Translations under genes and position numbers: made by a program | The notes under the pieces: model-generated | Told to the model about the DNA's origin: nothing | Databases searched by the model: none | The model's input: only the letters and a program-made list of their open reading frames with translations | Source of the DNA: Malacoraja senta | Lineage: Eukaryota | Direction: 5' to 3' | Assembly: GCA_038087875.1 (NCBI GenBank) | Contig: CM075993.1 | Coordinates: 5,768,001 to 5,832,000, forward strand | Length of the DNA: 64,000 nucleotides | Part shown: positions 7,201 to 34,200 of the stretch, one piece after another | Layout of the letters: every line of letters begins with the position of its first letter | Position numbering within the stretch: the stretch's first letter is position 1

Positions 7201-10200
7201 GAACTCTTCGGATGCCGAGTGCTTATGATGGAATTACAGTTATTAGTAAAATGAATAAATTACAAGATCAACATAAACACTCTCTAGCTTAAAACTACAA
7301 ATGATAATCTAAATCAGTACATCAATCATTTGGTCTTCTGCATTCCTATTTATAAGATTATGCATATGTAATGTGGTTCAACATTAAGTCCAACACGCAA
7401 AATTTGGTCTTGACTTCATTGGATAGACAATAGGTGCAGGAGTAGGCCTTTTGGCCCTTCGAGCCAGCACCGCCATTCAATGTGATCATGGCTGATCATC
7501 CCCAATCAGTACCCCGTTCCTGCCTTCTCCCCATATCCCCTATTTTTTAAGACCCCTATCTAGCTCTCTCTTGAAAGCATCCAGAAAATCTGCCTCCTCG
7601 TCTGTGGAATCCTCTGAGGCAGAGAATTCCACAGACGAGGAGACAAGGAATGATGATGGAAAGTTTGATGAAACATGGATGAGAGATGGAAAGATCTTAG
7701 AGGGCACAGGGGGTTACAGTGGTTATGTTACAGTTGAATATTCTAGAGGTCGGCACGCTCTCTGTGAACCAAAATCATTCACAAATACTCATTGCAGAAG
7801 AAAACGCTTCCCCAATCTGCCATGTCTGTGACTTCAGCCTTCTGAGCTGGTTTTACTAATCACCAAGGGGAATGAAAGTAAAGTTCAGCAACACCACCTA
7901 ATAATTACTAGGCTTTCCACTGACAGCCACATCCTGAAAATGATGTATTCAAATAAGAAACAAAATGACCAAATTGATCATTTTCACAATTAACTAGAAA
8001 GATACAAACATCTAAACTAGCAGAAGTTTAAAATAAATTAAAACATGTTTTAAAATTTGGGGACTTTAAACATGCTCTGTCACTCAATACAATCATGGCC
8101 AATTCTTTTATCTCAGCAGCGTTTTCCTGCACTCCCCACACCCCTTCATTAATTTTGTGTCCAGGAATCTCTTTCCTTCTTAAAATATGTTCAGTGACTT
8201 GGCCTCCACAGTCTTTCATGATTCAGATTGTCATTTGAAAAGGCTCCTGCTCAGTCCTAAATGTCTTTCTCCATATGTCATTCTGGTTTTAAAACCCCAC
8301 CCAGGAGAAAACCCTCCCTGCATTTTTGTATGTTTCAATGTGAGCTCCTTTCATTCTTCCAAACTCCAATTAATTCAGCCTGGTCAACGATAACTCCAAA
8401 TACAACAGCCCCACCATATATCTGAAGAATGGTCTCGACCCGAAACGTCACCCATTCCTTCTCTCCAGAAACGCTGCCTGTCCCGCTGAGTTACTCCAGC
8501 ATTTTGTGTGTGCCCACCATACAATCAGGTGAACCTCACTCATTCATTTTTTGAACAATCAAGGAGTTATCTGACCAAGGCCCTGTAGGAAGACATCCTC
8601 CTGCAATGAAGGTCAACGAGCCATATTCCTTTTTAAACCCTGCTGCATCTGCACATTTTCTCTCAGTGACTGGTGTAAAGAAAAGACACCCATAATCACT
8701 GAGTACATTAACAGCTCTGGCCCTATCACCATTTAAAAAGGAAAGCATAGAACCTAGAAAGGTACAGCACAAGAACAAACCTATCGATTCACAATGTCCA
8801 TGCTGAACATGATGTAAAATAAACTAATCTCTGCCAGCATAGGATCTATATCTCTTCATTCCCTGTATATCCATGTGCCTATCTAAAAGCCTCTTATACC
8901 ACACTGCCTCCACAATTCATGGCAGTGCATTCCAAGCACCCACCATCATTCATAAAGACTCCTCACACCCTTGGAATAGTCTGTTCGAACTTCTACCATC
9001 CGGCAGACGTTACAATGCCTTCTACGCCCGCACCTCCAGGCTTAGGAACAGCTTCATCCCCAGAGCTATAGCTGCTCTGAACGGCCCTGCTCTGTGCTTC
9101 CCCCCCCCCCCCCCCCCCACCCCCATGAACTATCTCCCTCAGATGGTCACGTCGCACATCGACCCGGCACAGACCTATTTGCACTTTATACTGCTTTAAC
9201 TGTTTTTTCTTAAATCTTGTTTCTCTGGGTGTCTAAATTTTTAGTTAATTAAGTTATTACATCGGATGGAAGCTGCATTCCAAATCTCGTTGTACCTCTG
9301 TGCAATGACAATAAAAGATGTTATTATTATTATTCCTTATAATTTAAAAAAAACTTGCCCTACACATCTCCTTTAAACTTTGCCCTTCACCTTAAAGCTA
9401 TGCCCTCTATTCTTTGACATTTTCACCCTGGAAAAATGGTTCTGACTGCCTATCTAATGTATGCCACGTATTTTATCTAATTCTGTTGGGTCTCCCCTCA
9501 ACCTCTGGCATTGCAGAAATAACAATCCAGTTTGTCCAAACACTCTGCCTTTTATTTTGTTTCCATTAAAGAGGATAACTTCACATTTAACCACATTATA
9601 CTGCATCTATTACGTATTTGCCCATTTGCTGAATTTGTTTACCTTGCCTTGAACCCTCTTTGCATCCTTCTCACAATTAACAAACCGACCCATGCAAGGG
9701 CAAATACAAACGTATTACATTCAGTTCCCTCATGCAAACCACCGATCTCATGAATGTGCTCCAAAACATTTAAATTATGGTGAATAAAACTTCAAATATG
9801 TAATAAATGAATTGGAAAAAGTAAAATCAGAGAGAATAACTCACCAAAGATCCAACTGTTGCACAATAAGCAGACAAAGAATTTCACGCGCACAGTATTG
9901 ATGAAGATAATTAGACACACTGCCAAAAAGGAGCTATAAAATTGTAAAGTATGTGGGATTGATGCATGAAAAAGGGAGCAGTGGTGTTACTGCAATATAT
10001 AGATTATTTTCAATAACTTGCTTAGGGATCTGCCAGTGCTGGTTAACGTTGTGGCCAATGGTACATCTCAGGATGATGACTATGCTGAAGGTTGCGAGGG
10101 CGGCAAGGATGCGCAGTGGTTGAGTTGCTGCCTTACAACGCCAGAGACCTGGGTTCGCTCCTGACTATGGGTGCTGCCGGTGCGGAGTTTGTGCGTTCTC

Positions 10201-13200
10201 CCAGCGAGTTTTCTCCGGGAGCTAGACAATAGACAATAGATGCAGGAGTAGGCCATTCGGCCCTTCGAGCCAGCACCGCCATTTAATGTGATCATGGCTG
10301 ATCATCCCCAGTCAGTACCCCATTCCTGCCTTCTCCCCATATCCCCTGACTCCGCTATTTTTAAGAGCCCTATCTAGCTCTCTCTTGAAAGCATCCAGAG
10401 AACCTGCCTCCACTGCCCTCTGAGGCAGAGAATTCTACAGCTCTGGTTTTCTCCCACATTCCAAAGATGTACAGGTTGGTAGGATAATTGGCTTTGGTAA
10501 AAAAAAAATGTTACTTGTCCCTCGGATAGTGGTAGTGTACAGCGATCACTGCTCAGCACGGACATGGTGGGCCAAAGAGTCTGCTTCCGCGCTGTATGTC
10601 TAAACTAAACTAAGGCACCAGAAATAAAAGTCGATGGTAACAGCGAAACACTGACTTTGTTTCCCTTGGACTCGAAACAATTCAACACATGCACCAAATA
10701 CAAACCGTGCGTGCAAACACCCTCCATATTTACCTCCATGGAGCCCATTTTCCGAGCCTTGGTCAGGGCAGACTTCCTGTGGGTGTGAAAAGACTCGGCT
10801 GGCAATGCCGGAAGAAATCCATCCACATCATCATCATCATTCCCTCGATTCTCTGAAAGGTCTTCCATGCTGCCCTGATCGGTCTTGGAGCCACCTTCAT
10901 TCTACAGAGGCAAGAAATGCCGTTACAACCAATCTCAGAAAGACATAACTAATGAAGACTAGCAAGGATGCTAGATCAGGATCAAGAGTGTTTTATTGTC
11001 ACATGTCCCAGACAGAACAAAGACATTCTTACTTGCAGCAGCACAACAGAATATGTAAACATGGTACTCGATAAACAATATATAAACGAGAAAAAGAGTG
11101 ATTCCAAATAGTTGTTATATTGGGCAGCTATTAGCAAATAGTTGCCCAAATGGACAAGAATCGATCCATAAATTAGTCCAAAATAAATAAATTGGTTAAA
11201 TATTGGATATACAGGCATTTAGATGGGCAGGGGCTAATTAGGGATAGTCAGCATGGTTTTGTATGTGGGAGGTCGTGTCTCACAAATCTGATTGATTTTT
11301 TTGAAGACGTGACCAAAAATGTCTATGAGGGCAGAGCTGTAGATGTTGTGCACATGGACTTCAGTAAGGCGAGATAGCTGAATGGATAGCAAATTGGCTC
11401 CAAGGAAGAAAGCAGAGGGTAATGGTGGAAGGTTGTTTCTCAGACTGGAGGCCTGTGACCAGTGGTGGGCCTCAGGGTTCAGTACAGGGCCCGTTACTGT
11501 TTGTCATCTACATTAATGATTTGTATGAGAACATACATGGCAAGATTAGCAGGTTTGAGTTTGCTGATGATACAAAAGTGAGTGGTTTTGCAGATAGTGA
11601 AGATGGTTGTGAACAATTGCACCAGGATCTGGATCGATTGGCCAGGAGGGCAGAGGAATGGTTGATGGAATTTAATACAGAGAAGTGCGAGGTGTTGTAA
11701 TTTGGGACGTCGAACAAGGGCAGGATCTACATAGTAAAGGGTAGGCCTCTAGGTTGTGTTGTAGAGCAGATGGATCTAGTACAGGTACATGGTTCCGAGA
11801 AGGTCGAGTTGCAGGTAGATAAGGTGGTCAAAGAGGCCTTTGGCACTTTGGTCTTCATCAGTCAGAGTATTGAGTATAGAAGTTGGGAGGTCATGTTGCA
11901 GTTGTATAAGACGTTGTGAGACCACATTTAGAATATTGTGTTCAGTTCTGGGCACCATGTTATAAGAAAGATATTGTCAAGGATGTTGCCAGGACTAGAG
12001 AGTATGATCGATAGGGAGAGGTTGAGTTGGCTGGGTCTCCATTCCATGGAGCGTAGGAGGATGAGGGGAGATCTTAAAGAGGTATACAAAATCATGAGAG
12101 GTATAGATCTCGTAGATGTACAGAATCATTTGCCCAGAGTTGGGGAATCGAGGACCAGAGGACATAGGTTCAAGGTGAAGGGGAAAAGATGTAATAGGAA
12201 TCCGAGGGGTAACTTTTTCCACACAAAGGGTGGTGGGTGTATAGGAGGTAGTTGAAGCTGAGATTATCCCATTGTTTAAGAAACAGTTAGACAGGTACAT
12301 GGATAGGACAGGTTTGGAGGGATATGGACCAAGCGCAAGCAAGTGGGACTAGTGTAGCTGGGAAATTGTTGGCCGGTGTGGGCGAGTTGGGCCGAAGGGC
12401 CTGTTTCCACACTGTTATCACTATGTGGAAGAAGGACTAATTAGATCCATCTACAAAGAGCAAACACATGCAAGATGGCCCACATGCCTCTTTTTTGCAT
12501 CTATAAATAATCTTGGTGCAGTTTCTGATCTTATAGTTTCACTTACATCTTTTACATTTCAGATTACTTTCATGGTTGTTCAGACTCCACCTTTCACAGC
12601 TATTGTGTCTAAATGTCTGAGTAAAATTGGAGTATGTATGTCCAGGCACCAGAAACTATTTATTTCAGCTCCAGATCATGCCCATTTTTGGAATGATGCA
12701 GATTAAAATCATCCTAGTCAAATATATAGAACAGTAAGAGCAAGGGAGTGTAGTAGCAGAACATGTATTATACTGTTATATAATTTTAGATTTGCTTGAA
12801 AGTTTACAAATGTCACGCTGTATGTTGCTGCAAGTAACATTCTCGTGATTAGAGCACTTGATCTTTTTTAATTATCCTTTATGAAACTGTTGTCTCTGAC
12901 TGGGTATCTTCGAAGGCGGCAGAGATATTCACTGGTTTCAGAAGGAGAGATATAAAAATGAAAAAATTTCAATAAACAAAAGCAGAATCGTTCATATTCA
13001 TGATTTGCTAAACTGAAACTCGGCCAAATAAAAATCTACTTGATCACATTCACAAGATATTATTCCTCAACTGAAGTCTTCCTCGAGCAAAAATCCCAGC
13101 AACAATGGCTTGAGATGGGACCAAAGTGTTATCCTGCAAGTTAAAACAGAAAGCCCCGAGTCTCGTGAGTGAGACCGAGTCATACAACCTTGTAACACGA

Positions 13201-16200
13201 GTCTCTTAATTAGGCCACAGCTGACAAAAAAAACTGGAAGAGAATTTGGGGCTAATAAATCCACATTAACACTGCAGAAAATAACGTATACTATTTTGTG
13301 ATTCGTAAAGGGATTGTGTCAACCCGCTGTGACTTACCTCAGCAGATGCCGGACGGAAGCCAGATCCTGTGGGAGCGTTTTCATCCTCATCACAGCCTTT
13401 AGCCCCTGGACTGAAGTGAAGCTCCACGTGAAACCGTTCTTCAGAGGAAGGGTCCTGGCGGAAAGGAGAACATTGCAAAACCACACAGCGCAAGTTACAA
13501 GATACAAGAGCACAGATCACGTGGTAAACCTATTAATAATATTAAAGATCTTATGGCGTGCATCAGAGACCTGGAGAACAAAAACAAGTTATGCTTAACC
13601 TTAATAAATCAATCGGTTCAGCCTCTACACTTCTCTAAACCTATGCCCCCAGTTGTTCATTCCCCTACCCTAGGAAAAAAAATTGTAAGTAAGTTTATTG
13701 GCCAAGTATTCACATACAAGGAATTTGCCTTGGTGCTCCGCCCACAAGTAACAACTTGACATACAGTGACAGTTACGAATGACTCAGAAAACACTAAACA
13801 TTAATAATAATAAAACATTAATGATAAAACACCATTGATGTGAATTCCGCATCTTTATTCCCCTCATGATTTTATACACCTCTCTAAGATCACCCCTCAG
13901 CTTCGGGCACTACAGAGAATGGAGTCATAGTCTGTCCAATCTCTCCCTATAGATCAGTCCCTAGAGTCCAGGCAACATGTTAAATCTTCCCTGCACGCTT
14001 TCCAACGTAATAGCTTTTTACTGCAGCAGAACACTCTTTGTTGCCTGTTGCATTTCCATTAGAAACTACACATTGGAAAACCTACAACCACTGAAGATAT
14101 TATCTCACTTTGTAATATTGATAAGACTTCAAATTAACAAATGCGCGCCATGCTGCACACTACATACAAGTTTAAGACATTTATTCTATGTAAAAATGGA
14201 TTCCCGTCTCAAATATGCTGTTAAAATGGAAACTGCTGTGAAAAAAAAAATCATTGCTAGGTAGACAAAAAATAGCTGGAGTAGCTCAGCAGGTCAGACA
14301 GCATCTCTGGAGAAAAGGGAATAGGTGACACTTTGGGTCGAGCTGCTTCTTGTAGATGATAGGAATCTGGAAACTGGGTGAAGATGGAGGAAGTGATCAA
14401 ACACCTAATCAAAGGCAGTGCATCTGTCAGTACAGAGAGAGAGATGATGAATGGGGATGTATTTACATTGTGCTGCTCACCTTTTTGAATAACCTTGCCA
14501 AGAAATATTGGCAGCGATAAAAATGAATCTTTTGTTTTAATTAGCAGTTTGAAATGGAGCTAGAAGCTTCCTCGCCATTAGCTTTTAAACTGGAACTATA
14601 TAGATATTTGAAAAGAAAAACACACACTAGGGGTCTTCTGAAGGAGCAGAGAATTGAGGTTTAAGTAATAGCTTCCACAAGGTTTGCATATACACGATGG
14701 GGCCCAATGGCTTCCATGTCTGCTTGAGGATTCCATATTTTACGTAATAAAATGCTCTCAATTAGCCACGAGTGTTATTTGTTATCAGATTTACAAGTCA
14801 CTGTACACATATAAAATTAAGCTTCATCGATTCCTCAGAGAGTCAATGCCTCAAATCCCAATTAACACTACTTTTTAATTTTAAAGATGTGTGAACATTT
14901 CCTTATCACAAAAAAATATTAATTTGGCTACAACAGAGACATATGGACTGGAAATGTTTGTTTAATCCCTCTTCTGCAGTTTGAGGTTAATTCGCAATTG
15001 CAATTGAAATGGGTCAGTGTGGGAGAAAGAAAGGAGCAATGACGTTGGTTTAGTGTGTCCACTGCAAGTGGATGGATGAACAGAACAATCTCCTGCAGAC
15101 CTTTACTGTCCAAGGTCATATTTGAGGATGGGTTAGGAGCTCCAGCAGGAAATAGTGACTTTTGAAAGAGAAGGGGAAACAAAGGTTAAGCAGAGGATCA
15201 CTTGCACCTCCCTCCAACCTCATCTACCGTATCCGCTGTTCAAGATGTGGACTCTTATGCATTGGCGAGACTGAGCGATCGTTTCGCGGAACATCTTTGC
15301 TCAGTCCGCCTGAACCTACCTGATCTCCCGGTGGCTAAACACTTTAATTCTCCTCCCCATTCCCACACAGACCTATCTGTCCTAGGTCTCCTCCATTGTC
15401 AGTGAGGCTAAACGCAAATTGGAGGAACAGCATCTCATATTTTGCTTGCGCAGCTTACAACCCAGTGGTACGATATTGATTTCTCTAACTTCAAGCAACC
15501 CTGGCATTCCCTCTCTTTCCATCCCATCCCCACCCAAGTCGCACCAGCTTCTCGTTTTCTTTTTGCATATCTTTCATTCATTGTTCTTTATCTCTCTACA
15601 TCATAGATTATAGCTCTCGTTTCCCTTTTCCCAACCAGCCTGAAGAAGGGTCTCGACCCGAAACGTCACCCATTCCTTCTCTCCAGAGATGCTGCCTGTC
15701 CTGCTGAGTTACTCCAGCTTTTTGTGTCTATCTTCGGTTTAAAACAGCATCTGCAATTCCTTCCTACACATTTGCAGTGAATAAATAGTGTTTTCTAACT
15801 GAAGCACGGCAGGCAATGGTGCACGCCAATGATCTGTGCGACGACCACTTAATAAATTACTTGGATGTTGAAATACAGATTAACATTTCAAGATTTGTTG
15901 GTGTCACCAGAATTGGGAGTTCTGTAAACCCATTGGGCTGCATCTGAAACGGGGCCCATTTCCACGTGTTGTACCTTATTGTTATCCTCGTACAACATGA
16001 TGACAATCTGAGTCATGTAGTTCAGTTCTGACACTGCACCAAGGTAGTCCATGGCTCTTTTCCACTGCTGATCCTTTAGCTCCTAAGAAACAGAGGGGGA
16101 AATATATTAATGCAGACTCAAAGTCACCTAAGAATCCCTGCGACAGATTGGGTAACAGTAGAGGGAGAAGATGGAATAGGGGCGGGGAGAAATGAGGCAA

Positions 16201-19200
16201 AAGACAACATTTAGCAATGGGAACGAGAGTAGCCCGTAGGGTCGATTAATATATATTTTAAAATTCTCTCCTTTCAAATTCTGCTCATTGTTGGGCACTA
16301 ACTTATTGAACAAACTATGATAGTAAAAGCGCTACTTACTCCCAAAAGACCTCCGAAACGAAATAAGCTCAGCAACGAATGAACGTGGCTCTCACTCGTA
16401 AAGTACAACCGTGTCCGCACGTGGCGTCCGGGAGACATCACCCCTCTGGAATAGCTAAACAACAAGATGAAAAGTCATCAGGTGGACAGCATTTTGCCAA
16501 AGTAAATGATAGTGGACTTGCATTTCTATGGTGCCTTTCACAAGGAAAGTTACACTCAATGGAGTACTTTCAACATGTTGAATTGGAGGAAATGCTCGGT
16601 GCCACAAACAGGAACCAACTCATGAGCAGATCATGTTGAAGGGAGACAGGCTATCTGGGTACCTAGGATAACAACTCCTGATTTGCTTTGACACAGTGGC
16701 TTGGGATCTTTTATATCCCACCCTGCTCCCAGCACCAAAATGGAGGTCAGGCTCTCTTGTTCAAAGTGTGGCATTCTACAGTACTGCACTGTGAGAAATG
16801 GTGCATTAATTCAGACACGAGGTGATCAGAGAACACTCCGTGTTCGGGAGGGTGGTAGAGAAAAAAAAGACACATTAGGAGGAAATATGCACGTCAAGAT
16901 AATTTGCATTAAGGCGTCTGGAGTAAGAAATGAACTCACAAATTTCTGACTCCAATACTATATGGGAAAGATAAAATGGGTGAGGGCAGGATTAATGTAA
17001 AAACAGGTGCTTGATGGTTGGTATGGACTCAGTGGGCAAAGGGCCTGTTTCCGTGCAGTTTCTCCCTATGATTCTCTGAGAACGAATACAGCATTTTACC
17101 AGGATGATTCCTGCAATAATGATTTGACAGTACAGGGACAGCTTAGGCAGACCGACCCTACATCTTCTCAAATTTTGAAGAATGAGAGGAGATATAATTC
17201 TTACAGGTTACTGGGGAAGGTGCAGATTTGCTGGGATAGCTAAAACAAGGGTCAAGTCTCAAAATAAGGAGCATGACAGAGGATAAGAAATTTCTTCAGC
17301 CAAGAGGTTTAGTTAGTTTAGAGATACAGCATGGAAACAGGCCCTTCAGCCCACCAAGTCGTGCCGACCAGCAATCACTGGTACACTCATTCTATCTTAC
17401 ACACTAGGGCCAATTTTTTTAAAGTTTTTTTTTTTAAAAAGACCAATTAACCTACAAGCCTGCACATCTTTGGAGTGTGGGAGGAAGCTGGAGCACGCTG
17501 AGAAAACCCAAGCGGTCACAGGGAGAATGTGCAAACTCTGTACAAACAGGCATCCGTGGTTAGCATCAAATCAGGGTCTCGGGCACTGTGAGGCAGCAAC
17601 TCAACTGCTGCGGAACCACGCCACCCGAGCGATGAATCTTTGAAATTTTCTTCACATGAGCTGTGAAGACTCAGTCAGAGTATGTGCCTAGTATAGGCTG
17701 AGGACTACATACTTCATTATACACTGGAATATGGGATTAGCATGGGAAAGCAGCATGGAGGTAAGTTGTGGAACAGGTGGCACAGGTTGAGTGGTCTATT
17801 CCTGCTTCTGTTTCGCATGTTATTAATGTCTTCCAGTATTTTGTCAGAATGATTTATTTCATCCAAGCGCCGAAACACTGGAAAACTGAACAGAGGACAT
17901 TGCATGTAATCTGGTGTCAGAGTAAGCAGATGTGATGGTGGTGTTTGACTAGCTTTTAGACAAGTACATGGGCCTGCAGGAAATGGAGGGATATGGATCA
18001 TTTACAGGGCAGAGGAGATTAGTTTAACTTGGAATAAAGTTCAGCACAGATATTGTGCGTTTGTTCCTGTTCTAAACTGTTCACTTTGTTTTTCTATGAA
18101 GGAGCATCTGCAGTTCCGCGTGTCTCCACTGTAATGTTCTATGTGTTAAAGAAGGAACTGCAGATGCTGGAAAATCGAAGGTACACAAAAATGCTGGAGA
18201 AACTCAGCGGGTGCAGCAGCATCTATGGAGCGAAGGAAAACGTTACCTATTTCCTTCGCTCCATAGATGCTGCTGCACCCGCTGAGTTTCTCCAGCATTT
18301 TTGTGTACCTTGTAATGTTCTATGTTCTTGATACCTGCTAATCCATAACAGTACTTATAATTGAGATCTTTACCTAAAGGGCTTGTCCCACTTGGGCGTC
18401 TTTTGTGCTTCATTTACACGACATAATTTACGCGTCACGACGCGCGCATTACGTGCATTACGCGCGCATGGCGCGTGGTGGCGTAGGCAGTGCCGTGCGG
18501 TGCCCCGGGATTTTGGGATTCTCAAAATTTGCGTGACGCACAAATGACGCCCAAGTGGGACAGGCCCTTAACTCACCTGCACACATCACTTCCATCTTGT
18601 CTCCCAACCTCACTTTGGCAACTCTCTAATATAATTCCCATCACTTCTTCTGAAGTCAGCAGTCTGGGTTTGGATCTTCCAAGGACATCAAATCCCTTCA
18701 CACAATATTACCATCAGGTGCCAATGGGTTCCAAAAATCACCTTCTCCGCGGCAAAATCAGCTCCACGTCCCATTTTCTGATAGTCTCACGACATACAAA
18801 CAGGATCCTCAACAAACTAACTCAACTCCCTGAGTTACACAGGACCAGGAGACATTCTGCCTACCAAGCCTGTGCCAGATCTTTGAAGAAACTGTCCAAT
18901 TAGTCCCACTCCCCTCTCCCTTTGCCAGCAGCAAAGCAATTTTGAGTTCCTTTTCATCTACTGATCCGATTAAACTTTGAAAGCTATTATTGAATCCACT
19001 TCCTCTATGCCAACAGCAGATTCAGATTACATTTTTTTTTTTAATCTCTTTGCCAGCTTAATTTTTGTTAAAAGAGTAGCAAAATACTTGCCAACATTTT
19101 CAAGTTTATATTTTTTCGATTCAGGATTTTCCCTTCGGAAACAAAAGGCCATCTGCAGAAAGGAGTGGCGCATAGTTTGATCAAGTGGCAAAGGCTCATG

Positions 19201-22200
19201 CTCTCAGTGGCTGACTTACAGTGGATGCAGTTTGTTGACAGATTCATCTTCATGCGTCCTTTGTAAATCCAGCTGCATCTTCGTGATCAGTGGAAGGCAG
19301 TATCCGTAGGCAATGTCCAGCTTTTCTTCCTTATTAATGCCATATTCCTACAGGAAGAAAAACAAAGTGTAAGGCTGCTAAACAGCAGTCCAGTAAAAGG
19401 GATACCAAGAGAGATCCTGCCCTCTTGACAAATGAGATCCAGGCAAAAGTTGTGCCCTCAAAACATCAAGAATAGAGGGGTCATGGTAAGCATACAGACA
19501 AGTTTTAGTTTTAGATCGAATGCAGGTCTCTGGTGCTGTAAGGCAGCAACTCTACCACTGTGCCACCATGTCGCTTAAATAATTAAGCTGGGAAAATTCA
19601 TGGGAGGTGGTCTTGGAGGGGAGGATGCTCCTCAAACTGCGGAGCATCTTGGACAATACAGCTCACCCCCTCCATGACACACTGGTCAACCCGAGGAGTA
19701 CCGTCAGCAACAGACTGGTCCCACCAAGATGCAGTACAGAATATCACAGGAGATCCTTCTTCCCTGTGGCTATCAAACTGTACAAATCCTCCCCCTTCTG
19801 TTGTGGGGTAGACGGAGACTGACTCCCCTCCCCCATCGTTGCACATCCCCAATCCTTTCCACTCATCACTTTAAATTTCAGGTTTCATGTATATTGTGTT
19901 TTATGACTGTTGGCAGATCAATTTCCCTCCTGGGGTAATCTATCATATCGTAGTTAGACAACAGGCCATTCCATTACAGCTGTGAAAAATATACATCATC
20001 TAGATGTGCTGGGACGCATCCTCACTGGTGATCTGGGGTCATCGGGTGTTTCGGGTCTCACAACATCAGACACCCTCGCCCAGGCGACCCAGCCGGGGTT
20101 GATCAGGCCCCGACTTGCGTCCCAGCAGCAACCGCCCATGGATCAGCCATCTTAGTAACTACTCTGCAGGGGTTGGGAGACTCTAGTGCGTGGAGGGACT
20201 GGGCTCTGTGGGGTGAGTCCTGGCCGGGCTCCTCCTGCGTTTCACCAGTTTCAAGGCCTGTGCGCTGCACCTCTTTCTCCTTCTCTGAGCATTTCATTCT
20301 CGCCCGATGGATTTTTAGGCCACGGTGTTTCAATAGGCCTTTCCGTAGCTTTATATGGTGACTTTCTCACGAAAGACACAGACTGGGGTGCTAACCCTGA
20401 CTTTCCCGGGTGCCGTCTTTCCGTGCCATCAACTGTCTCTCCAGTAGTCACCAAACTATTCTTGGTTGTCACCCAGTCTACTCCTAGGTGCCACTGGCTG
20501 AGCCAGACTTCAGTGTGAAAAATATACATCATCTAGATGCGCTGGGATGCATCCTCACTGATGTGATCTGGGGTCATCGGGTGTTTCGGGTCTCACAACA
20601 TCAGACACCCTCGACCAGGAGACCCAGCCGGGGTTGATCAGGCCCCGACTTGCGTCCCAGCAGCAACTGCCCACGGATCAGCCATCTTAATAACTACTCT
20701 GCAGGGTAAATACTGTGAAGAGGGTACAGCACAAATTCACAATTTGTCAATGATAGGGTAACAATAATTTAAAAGATTGCCAGTTTCAAAAGGCCAAACC
20801 CAGATTTAGCAGGATTTTCATTCTGTTAGGTTTTGATTGGGTGTATAAGTTAATGTGAAGAGTCTCTGTTTGATGATTCAGTGAGAAAGGACTCATCAAT
20901 TAAAAAAAAAAAAATCACTGAAACATTGATGGAAGGGATTCGCAGAAATATTCAACACTCAGGAATTCTTTGCCACAGTTACAGATTATGGTGAGATGCT
21001 TTACTTTTATTATTATTATTTTTTTAATTTTTATTTTTTTTATTTTTTTAAGGACTTAATGGATAACAGGGCCACAGGGCAATTAGAAGCACACTGGGTA
21101 GTGGACTTGGCATTGGATTGTGTTAGCCAAGATCCAACGTTAAGGCCTTCTGGTGATTCAAGCAGCCACTACTACTCATTTCAAATACCATCTTTTTTTT
21201 CCTTTTTTTTTTTTAAAAGAACTGTAGGTTTTTATTCTCACCAACTGTTTTCTTTTTACTGTTGAACAACCCTGCAATTTCTCAGTGCTTTATCAGTCCC
21301 ATAATAAACCAATCCCATCTCCTCAATAACTAGCATGTATACAGCTCATTAATACAGTAAAGCATCCCAAGATGCTTCACATGAGCAGTTAGACAAAGAA
21401 CGCCAGAGGAACAGATAGTAAGACAGGTAAACGAGCAACTTGATCAATAAAGTGGGTTTTAAGGAGTCCTCTAGGAGAGAGAAAAAGGCAGAAAGTTATT
21501 ATTTTAGTGGACAGTTGCGCAAACCACTGGCTGATTCTGCAAAACGTCATATCCCTACCAACCTCTCCTCACAAAACGCTCACAATGTCACTTGGTTGCT
21601 ATGCATTCCTGCAGGATGTGCATGGAACACAACTGTAATAGCGTCACACCATACAGGTGGAACTGCTGGTAAAGTTGCTGCCCTACGGTGCCAGAGAGCC
21701 GGGCTCAATCCTGACCTCGGGTTCTGTCTGTGTGGAGTTTGATCATTGTGTGTGATTGCTGGGCTTCCTCAAGGTGCTCCGGTTTCCTCCCACATTGGTT
21801 CATTGGCCTCTCAATAAACTCCTTACACACTCGGGGCAATTTAAAGTGGGATAGCATAGACCTAGCGTGAATGGGCGATCGATGGTCGGCGTGGACTCAG
21901 TGGGCCTGTTTCTATGCTGCATCTTTGGACCAATTCAATCAATACATGGACAAATTCATGAGTGATAAAGGGTCGTCAAGTTGACCAGTAAAGGTGATGA
22001 GAGGGAGATTAAAAGGGTGCTTGCAAACAAACCAGGCGATGAATGAGGCGATTATGGGACAAGGGCCTAGGGCTGTACGGGGGAACTCACAGCATGGGTC
22101 TTGGTCCTCAAATAATGCCAAGAAGAGGACCAATATTTCACGCCCAGGGAAACTGATGGGAGATTTGATAAAGATCCATTTATATTTCCCATGAAAATAT

Positions 22201-25200
22201 AAAATATGTGCATAACTGAGGAAAAGCTAGACTTTGTACAAACCAAATGCTTCTCATTGAATACATTTGATACCATTCACAGCCACACTATTGGATGGGA
22301 ATAACTTTAACCATAGAGAACCATGTGGTGATGTATTTAAGAGAGAGTTAGATATATCTCTTAGGGCTAACGGAATCAAGGGATATGGGGAGAAAGCAGG
22401 AACGGGGTAGTGATTTTGGATGATCAGCCATGATCATATTGAATGGCCTACTCCTGCACATATTTTCTATGTTTCTATGTTGACAAGAGTACCAAACCAC
22501 CCAGCAATTTACTCCCTGGTTGGCTTTCTTCCTTTGTTTAAGAAGGAACTGCAGATGCTGGAAAATCGAAGGTAGACAAAAGTGCTGGAGAAACTCAGCG
22601 GGTGCAGCAGCATCTATGGGGCGAAGGAAATAGGCAAAGTTTCGGCCCGAAATGTTGCATATTTCCTTCGCTCCATAGATGCTGCTGCACCCACTGAGTT
22701 TCTCCAGCACTTTTGTCAGATCTTCTTCCTTCACGTTAATCCAGCAATTTGCAAAAGCACAACTGGTTTTGAAGACATTTTACTGATTATCTTCCCATTC
22801 CCTCTAGTTCTCGAGTTTGATTTCTCAACCAGCATTCACCCAGCAGTGCCCCCTGAAAATACAAAGATATCCATTGTTAGCATATCATTAATTTCTAGAC
22901 AGTTCATTCATACAAAAATCATCTCCCAAACTTCTGAAGTGAGAAACATTTAATGGCACGAGGGCAAGTGGGAAAGGAAATAACTTTTATTCCCAGAACA
23001 ATAGCAGGCAGACTGAAGCTCAATTAATTTTTGTGGGAACTTTACCCTATAAATCAGCAACACATTTCTTGTTTCAAATAATTAATGAATTTACGAATAT
23101 GGAAATGAGAGAGAGAAGACAAAGTTAAGAAGATTGGATTGTGTGGGACAGAACTGCAGGTGCTGGTTTACATTTAAAGGGGCTGTCCCACTTGGGTGAC
23201 CTAATCTGCGAGTTTAGAAGAGTGTCTTCGACCTTCAAACTCGCAGCCATGGGTAATCTCCTTCGCTGACCGGGCATTTTGATTTTCATTGGAGTTTTCA
23301 GGACCAGGGAAAACCGACCGGTAGGTAAAAGGCCCGCTAAACTTTGTTAAACTTCTTATAAGTGTCTCCACTCCTTCTCTCCCCACCCCCCCTCCCCTCT
23401 GCGCTCTCTGAAGGACTTACCGTTACTGTGCAGCCGTTTTACCTTCTTCATAGCGGGTGTCAATTTTGTGTGTGCGTGTGTGTGTGTGTCACAAACTTAG
23501 TAGGCCAGGCAGAAAAATAATAGGTGTAATTTTGGGTCCAGACCGTTCTTCAGACTGTGAAGATTGGATTGTCTGAAATACCTAGAAATATGATCCCACT
23601 CTGCAACACTAGTGCCAGGTATTCCCAGAAAACTGCCATATGCGGTCTTTGCAATGGATAATGCCAAATTCCCATTTGGAAACCATGTTTACCATCAGCC
23701 AGGACTCAGCCTAAAATCTGACACTGCAAAGCAAATTGCTCTCTGCTAATTACACTGCTGTTTACTGAGATGATGCTGTCATGGTCAGACACTAGCTTCT
23801 TTCGCTCTGCATGTACATGTAACATAATCATTCTGCTGAGGGGAGCAGGGAGGGAAAGAGAATGGCAGAGAAGGAATGCTGCAAGCCAACAAAATAAAAA
23901 ATATTGTACAAGAAGGAACTGCAGATGCTGGAAAATTGAAGGTATACAAAAATGCTGGAGGAACTCAGCGGGTGAGGCAGCATCTATGGAGCGAAGGAAA
24001 TAGGCAACGTTTCGACCCGAAACATTGCCTATTTCCTTCGCTCCATAGATGCTGCCTCACCCGCCGAGTTTCTCCAGCATTTTTGTCTACCAAATAATAT
24101 TGTGCACATTACTTTATGTAAAGTGGCACAATGGGAGCATCTAATCGATACTGGTGACGATCACAGGTTTACTGCCACTGTGAAAATAAATTTTTAACCA
24201 GCGTTCAGAGAACAGTAGAATGGAGAAACGCGAGGCATCTTAGAATAAAAGACTTGTATCCGTTGCCATTCAGAGGGTGGAGCTCAGCAAAGCAGACTGT
24301 ACGTGCAGACAGCGCAGACATAGCTTGCATACTAAAGCTTTGTCCACAGTGAAAAACATCACCATTGGGGGAATATTAGGGTTGAGATTTATGAACAGAC
24401 AGGGAGACGGCTCATTTAACACATGCGAGCAATGCTGATTTACAGAAGGGAAATACGCAAAAACAGTCAATATGTTCAGATCAAAGCTTAACCGTCACGA
24501 TGCTGATATGCGAGGCTCGACATGCGGCATTAGTACAGTGATTATTTATTACTTATTATCTCAATTAATATGCATGAGAAATTCATTAGAAAAGAACCAC
24601 CGTGAAAGAATAATAAAAGCGAACACAGCAGTGATCAACGACAGAAATCCTTTCATTGCTTTAATTCAGTGTTACTTTAATTCAATTGTTGCAGGGCGGC
24701 ACAGCGGTAGAATTGCTGCCTTACAGCGCTTGCAGCACCAGAGACCCGGGTGCCGTCTATATGGAGTTTGTACGTTTTTCCCCGTGACCGCGTGGGTTTT
24801 CTCCCCGATCTTCGGTTTCCTCCCACATTCCAAAGGCTTACAGGCATGTAGGTTAATTGGGTTGGTGTATGTGTAAAATATCGTCCCTAGTATGTGTAGG
24901 ATCGTTTTAATGTGCAGGGACCGTTGGTCGGCACGGACCCGGTGGGCCGAAGGGCATGTTTCCGCGCTGTATCTCTAAACTAATCTCCAATTCCCCAAAA
25001 CTCTGCAAGTCCCCCCCATGGATCCCTGCACCCATCGACTCTTTCCACCATTCAGCTACTCATTAAAACTTACCATTCATTCCAATATCACCTTACATTG
25101 CTGTATCAAATTTGGTTTGACAAATCACCTTGAAATGCATTATCAAATATATATTGATGGTGCAATATGAATGGAAATCATTGAAGGGAGTCAAAAGGGT

Positions 25201-31200: not shown

Positions 31201-34200
31201 TCTACAAGAACCAAGGCCGCACCAGAACGCCAAGGCCCCGCTAGCGATCCTTTCTTCTGTGATACAAATTAATTTAGCAACACAGCATAATGCTAAAGTC
31301 AGAGATCTCAGGTTTGCATAAAAACAAGAGCGGAGCATGCACTGACGAGGTTCCAGAAATGTATAGTGTAGAAATAGGCAGCTTTGGGCACCTTGATTAT
31401 GTCAACTCTGATGTCAGTCTTCACTAATCACATTTGCCTCCATTGGGCCTCATATTCCTCTACACCTTTCACAAGTACCGCCCCAAAAGCCTCTTGAGCA
31501 TAGTAACAAAAATAAACTTTAGTTATTTTAAAAAGATCTTTATTTTTGAAAATCCTACTATTTCTGAAAAGCAACATTATTATAGCAAGTCTGAAACGCT
31601 CTGGCCCCTAACTCCCTTTTCCCCAATGACACGTGTTTTTACAACAACATTATCTATAATGTGAAGCTTCTTCAGAATGCAACTATCACGTATAGCAGAG
31701 CTGCCTGCACCTGTGATGCAGAGCTATAGGTAGAAAATACACAGGAAACATGCTCGAGCTCTCTCAAAGCAAGCAAGCAACAGCCATGCAATCAGCTTTG
31801 CCTTTCTTAATGTAGAACTTCTTCTTCCTGCGTATGGCGTGCAGAGCCTAAAGTTGTAGGACAACTTGTTTTATTTGATCTTATTTGATTGTACACGCTG
31901 GGTTGATTGCATTCGTCGAAACAGGGCGGACCACGTGAAGGTTGCAATCTAATGTAGAACTGTTACGACTAGATGGTGCCACTAACATAGAGCACCTTAT
32001 CACATCCAATCCTCTCCCAACCCAGTGGATGCAGGCACTTGGTTACCTTTTTGTAGTCCTCTTCTGTGAACTCCTGATCCTTCTGCATGAACTCATGAAG
32101 TCGGGCTTTGACGCGGTGCTGACAGCAACTAAGCGAGTTGCTGTTACTGTCCAGAAGACCATTCATGTTGGCACTTTTCACCATCTGCACCAGAATTGGA
32201 GTCAGCTCCCCTTCCAATGCCAGGAGACCCTGTAACATAGTACACAGAAAGATGATAGGTGACGTCTTGAGGATCTTGGTATAGAGGTATATTTTGGTGT
32301 GTCCATGCTGTGAGGTTGACCTCATCCCCACTTCACAAGTCCAATACTGTTATTAGCAAGAATCAAAAAGATACAGTATTCTGTATCTGTCCTGGGCTTC
32401 CTCCATTGTCAGAGTTAGGCCACATGCAAATTGGAGTAACAGCACCTCATATCTTGCTTAGGCAGCTTACAACCCAGAAGTATGAATGTTGACTTCTCTA
32501 ATTTAAAGTAACCCCTGCATTCCTGCTCCCTCCCCCACCCTAGTCATCCTACTAGTTCCACTGCTCACATCACTTCTTCCCCTGCCAACAAAGGGGCCAT
32601 TATAGGCTCCACTCTTCCTTGCTTATGTGTTGACAGCCCTGCTTTGTCCTGGCCTTTTCTTAACTCCAGTTCCTTCCCTTCTACTTTCAGTCTGAAGAAG
32701 GGTCCCTACCAGAAACGTCACCAGTCCTTTTCCTGCAGAGATGCTGCCTGACCTGCTGAGTTACTCCAGCAATGTGTGTCTAGCCTTCGTTTAAACCAAC
32801 ATTTGCTATTCCTTTCTACACAGTACTTGGTTGCCTCTTTTTCACCCGTTCTACTGAAAGCAAACTAAAACTGCAAAGAAGTAGTCAGTGCCGTCTTCTT
32901 TGTTGTCGTGTGCTGGGGCAGTAGGGCGAAGGCCACAGACGCCAACAGGATTAACAAACTCATCAGGAAGAACGGCTCCATCCTGGGGGTGGAGTTGGAT
33001 TCATGGGAGGTGGTCTTGGTTGGGAGGATGCTCCTCAAACTGCAGATCATCCTGGACAATACAGCTCACCCCCTTCATGACACACTAGCTAACCTGAGGA
33101 ATACCTTCAGCAACAGACTAGTTCCACCAAGATGCAGCACAGAACACCTGAGGAGATCCTTCTTCACTGTGGCTATCAAACTGTACAACTCTTCCCCCTT
33201 CAGTAGTGGGGTAGACTGACTCCCCTCCCCAATTCTTTGCACATCCCCAATCCTTTCCACTCATCACTTTAATTTCATGTATCTTGTGTTTTATGAGTGT
33301 TAGCAGATCAATTTCCCTCCTGGGATAAATAAAGTTCTATCGTATCGTATCGTGAAAGCCTCTTTCTTCACGTACCTTGGCAAAAGCCGCGGCTGTCATC
33401 TGCACTCTGCCTTCATCGGAGGCATAGATCTTCAAGTCGTGCCTGTAGGTGCTGTGCAGACGAAGGAGACCGCAACCAGGAAAGCCAGCATAATCCCCTG
33501 AGAGAAAATAAAAATCACTTCACCCTCTGTTCAAATCACTCCAGTCATCTGCAGATGGTCCACCATTTAGTTTGACCTTGGATAATCTGTATCTTATTTC
33601 TTTTTTTTTTTTTAAATTCCACAACTCTCAAAACACTATTCTTTTCAATTGCAGTTCTGAAGTTTTCAATTGCCCCATTCTCAGCTCTTTGTCGACAAGA
33701 TTTCAAGATTTTCCGTCTGAAGAAGGGTCTCGACCAGAAATACCACCCATTCCTTCTCCCCAGACATGCTGCCTGTTACCCCGGCATTTTGTGTCTATTT
33801 TCAGATTTTCACTTCCCTTTGTGTATAGAGGGGCCTCTTAACACCAATCCTGAACAATCCGTCATATCCCACTGTTCTGTACTCCCAGGGGAAGTTACTT
33901 CTATCCACCCTCCTGACTACTTTAATCATATTAATTATCGAAATCAACTCTCCACTCAACAGGAAAATTTATCTGTGCAATCTGTCCACTTAATTTAACC
34001 TTTTGAATTCTGGTATTAGTCTGCCAGGACTAGCCCAGTATGCCAACCGGGTTGGCATGGATAATGTGGGCCGGAGCCTCTTTCTATGCTGTTCTCTATG
34101 CCTCTATGATCTTGATACTATCTCAATTTCCAAGTATGTCAGTATTCCAGTGTTGTGATTTACTGTGGTCCAGGTCACTCCAAGCAATGCTCTCAGAACT

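Follow-up and report, generated by a model that had tools for sequence, protein, structure and literature searches.

HERO is described, in the passages devoted to it, as a clade of retroelements encoding a restriction-like endonuclease (RLE), found in fish, lancelet and sea urchin and mostly not target-specific (PMC9004415, PMC4640811). For retrozymes, part of the account in PMC7229834 proposes a circular RNA template giving more than one unit, hepatitis delta virus (HDV)-like ribozymes of elements other than long-terminal-repeat (LTR) elements are treated in passages of PMC13725137, and type-SGC hammerheads (HRIMA-1) are known, according to the relevant passages of Eckert et al. (2023, PMC10085705), from metatranscriptomes only and from no genome of a known organism. 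Here we analyze a retroelement insertion on the minus strand of a 64,000-nucleotide stretch of Malacoraja senta DNA (GenBank assembly GCA_038087875.1, contig CM075993.1, positions 5,768,001–5,832,000; hereafter the window), in which a full 533-bp unit is preceded by a truncated copy of its own 3' end. As judged from the sequence, the unit descends, through two deletions, from a fish long interspersed nuclear element (LINE) encoding reverse transcriptase (RT) and RLE and is present in many copies, and what is new is that apparent hammerhead core strands lie, in S-G-C order, inside the terminal repeat of an animal LINE.

The repeat reads GGGUGUC-UGAUGU, then GACCC-GAAAC-ACCC, and then ACAUCA-CUGAnGA-U-G, that is, all three hammerhead core strands are found within it in the non-circular order S-G-C (blocks S, G and C in Table 1). 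The type-SGC descriptor, in the part of the paper that gives it, has linkers of 0–8 and 0–15 nt and an extra U after the core (PMC10085705); the linkers here, 4–6 nt from stem I to stem II and 13–14 nt from block G to block C, are inside these limits, and the extra U is present. Stems I and III have lengths within 4–7 bp and are 92% and 90% paired. Among 11 metagenome loci, a relaxed S-G-C descriptor matched L009 and L011, each with one stem II mismatch, and L010, with two. In composition-matched random sequence of 20 Mb it had no match, even when the stem II rule was dropped. Nine of these loci are element-derived, and the core CUGAnGA was found in seven of the nine, position 7 varying (U, C or G) with its neighbours kept in most loci; it was found in neither of the two window copies, both of which carry a C-to-G change. 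The GAAA of the loci was fixed by the search pattern. The remaining two loci, L004 and L008, match only that pattern and were left out of the alignment; the exact 20-base block G pattern occurs at L004:7-26 and L008:92-111, on contigs whose flanks are alike and unrelated to the element.

A wider sample was provided by spurious translations of the repeat in protein databases. A search with short repeat translations gave no match, and a representative search gave 43, of which 41 were kept and two (P0152 and P0171) were dropped as unrelated low-complexity sequences. In these 41 relatives, the residue encoded over U16.1–N17 is Ser (26), Tyr (14) or His (1), and never Cys or Trp; by these codons, N17 is never G and reads as C or A in 40 of the 41, with the two linker codons varying freely. 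The Glu over GAAA is kept in 28 of the 41. Moreover, in frames ending in xHH or xQH, the codons over the two strands of stem I covary (D–H in five relatives, V–Q in five and crossed combinations in none; nominal p, 0.008), which reads as UGAUG/CAUCA versus UGUUG/CAACA, and in the other reading frame 11 of 13 relatives are compatible with stem I. Collectively, the motif in intact family members probably cuts RNA at GUC/GUA. The retrozyme-like idea of the first-pass annotation, in which this motif had been overlooked, thereby gains a candidate ribozyme.

Several observations weigh against catalysis. Pair 2 of stem II is unpaired, as a pyrimidine–C mismatch, in all 10 sequences, the helix is only 63% paired, and a contiguous stem II with at least 2 bp beyond the G–C pair was not found; the strict published descriptor matched none of the 11 loci, and Rfam gave no hammerhead or other ribozyme, two chance hits by E-value and none at the gathering score. 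A rival helix, GGGUC/GACCC, is 100% paired (9/9), and the upstream strand CUGGG also has a partner in the G–C linker, which is 95.5% paired. The DNA alignment, itself selected by the block G pattern, showed no significant covariation (170/500 shuffles), 2 of the 23 parsed relatives break stem I, and the codon covariation infers third positions and may represent one ancestral event. Because of the stem II mismatch, the failure of the strict descriptor, the silence of Rfam, the rival helix and the lack of significant covariation in DNA, we call the motif SGC-like rather than a member of the type. No covariation was seen in stem III, and plain folding of the 3' and 5' regions, by a program without pseudoknots, was no better than that of shuffled sequences (z, −1.13 and 0.00). 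Searches of the viral and prokaryotic collections gave no matches. A side hairpin upstream of block S has two compensatory pairs in DNA, but it is broken in many codon-read relatives, as compared by eye, and was not relied on; an HDV-like ribozyme was looked for by eye in the 5' region and was not seen.

In one alternative explanation, the motif has no catalytic role and either serves as a binding structure for the RT or is the vestige of a ribozyme, the tandems then arising by read-through of arrays with 5' truncation during target-primed reverse transcription. The conserved mismatch, the strict-descriptor failure and the well-paired rival hairpins fit this explanation, as do a template that may already have carried the core mutation and two findings described below, the terminal redundancy of L010 and a deep junction contig in organism D, both of which also fit arrays. 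It leaves unexplained, however, a cleavage base restricted to C or A, the stem I covariation over ~35 nt, and three core strands with linkers inside the published limits, and we consider it improbable. At the window locus itself, both motifs are probably inactive: given the C-to-G change in the core of copies A and B and the loss of 2 nt from stem I in copy B, the locus should not cut.

The element to which the motif belongs was traced through its coding remnants. The frame at 20366–20106 matches 11 proteins among 21 candidates, the named ones coming from teleosts, and full-length relatives carry RVT_1; by regular expression, a CCHC knuckle is present in five of five relative proteins and the RLE motif (PD..ExxxPWE..K..KY) in four of five, and the closest solved structures are R2 proteins (E about 1e-22). 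The parent family thus has a single open reading frame (ORF) with RT and, after the CCHC knuckle, a C-terminal RLE; RT, knuckle and RLE have been lost at the window locus. Compared with the autonomous relative L010, a metagenome contig, the unit is without ~137 nt (D1) and ~2,960 nt (D2), and D2 joins the N-terminal PCRVV in frame to the C-terminal remnant. The proposal of a non-autonomous, internally deleted unit without RT and nuclease is therefore borne out, as a deletion derivative of an RT- and RLE-encoding LINE; D1 had escaped notice.

Naming of the family is less direct. A search with P0004 returned 619 proteins, and our statements on hosts and contigs rest on the best 120 of the 619. 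The matches include Tetraodon AAN12398.1, which clusters with BAC82599.1 and is 65–67% identical to L010 over ~1,040 aa, and Takifugu BAC82598.1, all under generic names. AAN12398.1 and BAC82599.1 are presumably Zebulon/HEROTn, and BAC82598.1 is presumably HEROFr. The HERO/Zebulon assignment rests on these presumed identities of the pufferfish accessions. Hosts among the 120 are mostly teleosts, together with Branchiostoma (lancelet) and one bivalve, and sea urchin is absent among them; they agree with the range of fish, lancelet and sea urchin given for HERO in passages of PMC9004415. Many short-read contigs with a full ORF among the matches listed span 3.3–4.4 kb, roughly the length of one unit, a size that would result if a terminally repeated or tandem element were collapsed during assembly.

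The arrangement at the locus was confirmed as first annotated, namely, 3' end, 5' region with N-terminal coding sequence, and 3' end again, with a period of about 534 bp. The two copies of the repeat, A upstream and B downstream in the sense of the element (Table 1), are 95.3% identical over 193 columns and are spaced 533–535 bp from start to start; they differ by seven substitutions, four of which are CpG transitions, and by one 2-nt gap, and no third copy was found elsewhere in the window. D2 also occurs in copy A (20682–20697). Since copy A starts ~15 nt upstream of D2, it is a 5'-truncated copy of an already deleted unit, and since it passes through this family-specific deletion, the 3' part of the unit itself must have served to regenerate the upstream repeat, with copying carried beyond the predicted cut. 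The start CCCTGCAGAGTAGTT, noted earlier as common to both 3' copies, represents N-terminal coding sequence (..PCRVV) ~15 nt upstream of D2, and copy A is therefore not a defined LTR. 'LTR-like' is likewise only a loose fit because the 5' start of the upstream repeat is variable: unlike LTR retrotransposons, which are RT-integrase elements with fixed-end repeats, the window and L003 have upstream repeats that start at different points, and the parent family encodes RLE, with no integrase found by Pfam.

Table 1 Features of the insertion and of the hammerhead-like motifs in the window.
Feature	Position	Strand	Basis or remark
Candidate 7-bp target-site duplication, upstream copy (TTCACAG on minus strand)	20713-20719	minus	sequence
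Six extra bases at 5' junction, between upstream target-site duplication and copy A	20707-20712	minus	
Copy A (last 193 nt of unit, 5'-truncated; spans D2, ORF end and ribozyme-like motif)	20514-20706	minus	
Copy A, block S (stem III strand, GUC, stem I strand)	20598-20610	minus	analogy with PMC10085705; predicted cut 20604/20603
Copy A, block G (stem II strand, GAAA, stem III strand)	20579-20593	minus	
Copy A, block C (stem I strand, CUGANGA core, extra U, stem II strand)	20545-20564	minus	core C->G at 20558
One full 533-bp unit, non-autonomous element	19981-20513	minus	
Middle part between copies A and B	20172-20513	minus	
5' region, natively continuous with the repeat upstream	20340-20513	minus	colinear with both L010 and L003; similar to the N-terminal extensions of P0011 and P0056
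Deletion junction D1 (~137 nt lost, including first half of N-terminal Cys motif)	20320-20339	minus	bridged by many contigs
N-terminal coding remnant (HRGLKIH...PCRVV)	20157-20327	minus	81% over 57 aa to P0001, E 1e-29
Deletion junction D2 (~2,960 nt lost: RT, zinc knuckle, RLE)	20147-20162	minus	bridged by contigs in all four runs
Copy B (downstream repeat)	19981-20171	minus	
C-terminal ORF remnant and stop codon	20103-20146	minus	C-termini of relatives
Copy B, block S	20063-20075	minus	predicted cut 20069/20068
Copy B, block G	20044-20058	minus	
Copy B, block C	about 20012-20030	minus	C->G at 20025; stem I shortened by 2 nt
Candidate target-site duplication, downstream copy, overlapping the element's last six bases	19980-19986	minus	sequence

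Whether the head-to-tail junction is confined to this locus bears directly on its origin, and it is not. Unbroken alignments across 20514/20513 were obtained with L010 (262/339, 77%; E 2e-68) and with L003 (70% over 326; E 8e-47), and L003 has the layout of the window: unique flank, truncated repeat and 5' region. L010 is terminally redundant with a period of 3,639, which fits either terminal repeats or arrays. Of the nine element-derived loci, these two run from the repeat into the 5' region, six run into unrelated flank (that of L007 and L009 being in common), and one ends with its contig. Among 51 relatives with a located N-terminal motif, three have an N-terminal extension of at least 120 aa, and in two of the three (P0011 and P0056) the repeat is translated upstream of the 5' region. 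These two proteins have a reading frame that begins within the repeat and crosses the 5' region without a stop to join the ORF (P0056 residues 1–151, P0011 residues 1–126), so that translation could begin well upstream or immediately past the predicted cut. The partial tandem is thus found in the window, L003, L010, P0011 and P0056, and, by these alignments, the junction is native to the family. The earlier suggestion of copying beyond one unit length, here 1.36 units, is supported by the same relatives.

The locus might also have arisen by duplication of DNA in place or by two separate insertions into a single site, and local copying or conversion would also produce the rare letters that copies A and B have in common (20531/19998, where the family letter reaches at least 99.5% in three DNA runs, and 20558/20025, where it reaches 96–99%). 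The unbroken alignment of the junction to L010 and L003, distant relatives with which it is colinear, makes local duplication unlikely; a single candidate target duplication encloses both copies, and two independent insertions would rarely have two rare letters in common. We regard these origins as very remote. The two letters point to one template or to later conversion, and the private changes of copies A and B, being CpG-rich, are proposed to have accumulated as the copies diverged in place.

The 7-mer CTGTGAA, suggested previously as a possible target-site duplication, is indeed present on both sides of the insertion, and the chance of this 7-mer within a 20-nt window is ~0.003; six of its seven letters are, however, the element's own terminal letters, and no empty site was seen, in that no element-skipping joint occurs among the joints listed in four sequencing runs. 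The abundant repeat at 19596–19952 was tried as a guide to an empty site and rejected, as it ends ~30 bp from the element's 3' end without continuation on the other side. The six extra bases upstream of copy A may correspond to a frequent feature of truncated LINE 5' ends. The orthologous upstream flank continues into copy A in organisms B and D (7 differences per 217 nt and 13 per 239 nt), and therefore the insertion predates their split from the lineage of the window. The locus is best explained as one old retro-insertion of 1.36 units.

Depths, junctions and family letters were obtained from 4 of the 23 listed runs, all as assembled contigs. The summed depth inside the unit is 7,867–22,924 against 9.52 for unique flank in run X5 and 108,943–770,523 against 78.7 in run X3; summed contig depth is not a copy number, and the family likely has hundreds to thousands of copies. 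Contigs bridge both D1 and D2. A different junction was found in organism D (run X5), where the repeat is joined to a shortened 5' region (20389 to 20515) on a contig of depth 437.6, ~46 times the 9.52 of single-copy flank; its 36 intervening letters were compared by eye, and a second contig of this organism spans the junction with 15 gap letters. This variant may represent an amplified subfamily or a tandem array. Other copies exit the repeat into flank at 20511, 20512 and 20520.

Our best overall explanation, which we hold to be evenly poised between right and wrong, is that 1.36 units were inserted into one target site from a ribozyme-cut, circularised or end-joined RNA. An intact motif would cut RNA at GUC/GUA, and a locus longer than one unit, having two cut sites, would release unit-length RNA (20603 to 20069, 535 nt; ~3.6 kb for the autonomous element). 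Circularisation of this RNA by a host ligase is conceivable, at a probability we place a little under even. The RT/RLE of a partner element would then nick the target. Reverse transcription, primed through a short match (TTCACA) that lies at a fixed position within the RNA, ~90 nt beyond the cut in the downstream direction, would proceed round past the cut site until the RT fell off; the product would be the 5'-truncated repeat followed by the full unit between target duplications, with copies A and B subsequently diverging in place. In the insertion observed, copying passed the unit's own deletion junction and ~100 nt beyond the predicted cut, and it ended at a near-fixed point with a short target match. 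Because copying would begin ~90 nt inside the released RNA, the RT must pass from the 5' end of the RNA onto its 3' end, for which a ligated circle, of the kind proposed for retrozymes (PMC7229834), would be a simple means.

No circle would be required for this passage if the template were a linear, terminally redundant RNA. On reaching its 5' end, the RT would switch, through strand transfer or an end-to-end template jump, to the corresponding 3' repeat, either on that RNA or on a sister molecule, and resume copying; the ribozyme, if it is active, would serve only to define the 5' end. This is the main rival to the circle, followed by uncut read-through RNA of arrays, and we judge it unlikely on balance. 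It would give the same anatomy, the common rare letters and the passage through D2; RTs of the R2 type are capable of jumping from one RNA end to another, R2 itself has a ribozyme at its 5' end, and pairing of the upstream CUGGGUC with GACCC could keep the 3' copy uncut. Strand transfer requires, however, that the 3' copy stay uncut although the sequence of the 5' copy is identical, and the equally conserved linker partner of CUGGG would leave block G free.

Two points count against the circular or end-joined template. A template that had the core C-to-G change should not have cut itself in cis. This agrees better with a template that stayed uncut or was copied by strand transfer, or with conversion between A and B, than with a circle; the circle could still be reconciled with the mutation by trans-complementation or by conversion at a later time. 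In addition, all runs are contigs, and the one run supposed to derive from RNA carries a flag as probable DNA. Generalized to the family, the proposal would be that the terminal repeat of Zebulon/HERO-type LINEs contains an active, non-circularly permuted hammerhead of S-G-C order and that these elements replicate, by internal priming, from a circular RNA produced by self-cutting; it is tentative, and we lean slightly against it.

Around the element, His_Phos_2 matches were found in two exons (33376–33495 and 19219–19347, minus strand) of a gene that we take to be PPIP5K, and the element lies between them in sense orientation. An active ribozyme in this orientation would cut the pre-mRNA of the host gene; both window copies carry the core mutation. 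The repeats near the element are presumably of a cartilaginous fish. The very abundant repeat at 19596–19952 has another copy at 32999–33349 (85% between copies) and a short tandem tail, and self-complementary stretches (87–96% palindromic) at 18178–18311, 22575–22717 and 7591–7645 belong to a family that recurs many times in the window.

Zebulon of Tetraodon, ascribed to Bouneau and colleagues (2003), is reportedly a partial tandem, and the partial tandem is probably already a known trait of the Zebulon-type family. Zebulon/HERO resembles the family of the unit in this reported tandem and in the single ORF with RT and C-terminal restriction-like nuclease of relatives, and differs from the unit itself, which is non-autonomous, 533 bp long and marked by two deletions. 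In the literature searched, no ribozyme was found described for the HERO/Zebulon clade and no work linked HERO or Zebulon to a hammerhead, with the proviso that an earlier description may exist in Repbase, Dfam or subscription journals; the main-text passages of a 2026 retrozyme preprint do not mention HERO or Zebulon (bioRxiv 10.64898/2026.07.22.740005), and for SGC-order hammerheads only the original paper was found (PMC10085705). If the present reading is true, it would offer a mechanism for the partial tandem of Zebulon-type elements, that is, insertion as slightly more than one unit.

The type-SGC hammerheads, as far as the relevant passages describe them (PMC10085705), are like the motif in S-G-C order, the extra U after CUGAnGA, a short I-to-II linker, a G-to-C linker and full stems I and III, and differ in having a contiguous stem II and a fourth helix, whereas the motif here is genomic, lies in an animal retrotransposon and has a stem II mismatch. 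If it is a true ribozyme, the S-G-C topology would have its first genomic example here and RLE LINEs their first hammerhead found in print, and a widespread animal LINE family would give the topology a cellular role. Retrozymes, both plant LTR and animal non-LTR, share with the unit non-autonomy, hammerheads in repeated ends and a proposed circular RNA template for copying beyond one unit. They differ, in the passages that characterize them, in that their hammerheads are of type III or type I and their partners are Gypsy or Penelope elements, whereas the unit descends directly from an RLE LINE and keeps ORF remnants (PMC7229834, bioRxiv 10.64898/2026.07.22.740005). Animal non-LTR retrozymes in particular have type I hammerheads in tandem units of ~170–400 nt and are expressed as circular RNA, and here the unit is 533 nt long, with S-G-C order and no Rfam hit. 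If the proposal is true, the 533-bp family would count as a retrozyme, and descent would identify its autonomous parent. Penelope-like elements with pseudo-LTRs, in the parts of their description considered, are similar in forming partial tandems, the repeated portion of which contains a hammerhead, and differ in RT class, GIY-YIG nuclease and minimal type I hammerhead. R2, unlike the family of the unit, has an HDV-like ribozyme, no known terminal repeat and specificity for ribosomal DNA. It is nevertheless also an RLE LINE, and a self-cleaving ribozyme, cited in passages of PMC13725137, sets the 5' end of its RNA; if true, our proposal would connect R2-related enzymes, which are under study as tools for gene insertion, with a retrozyme-like mode of replication through circular RNA.
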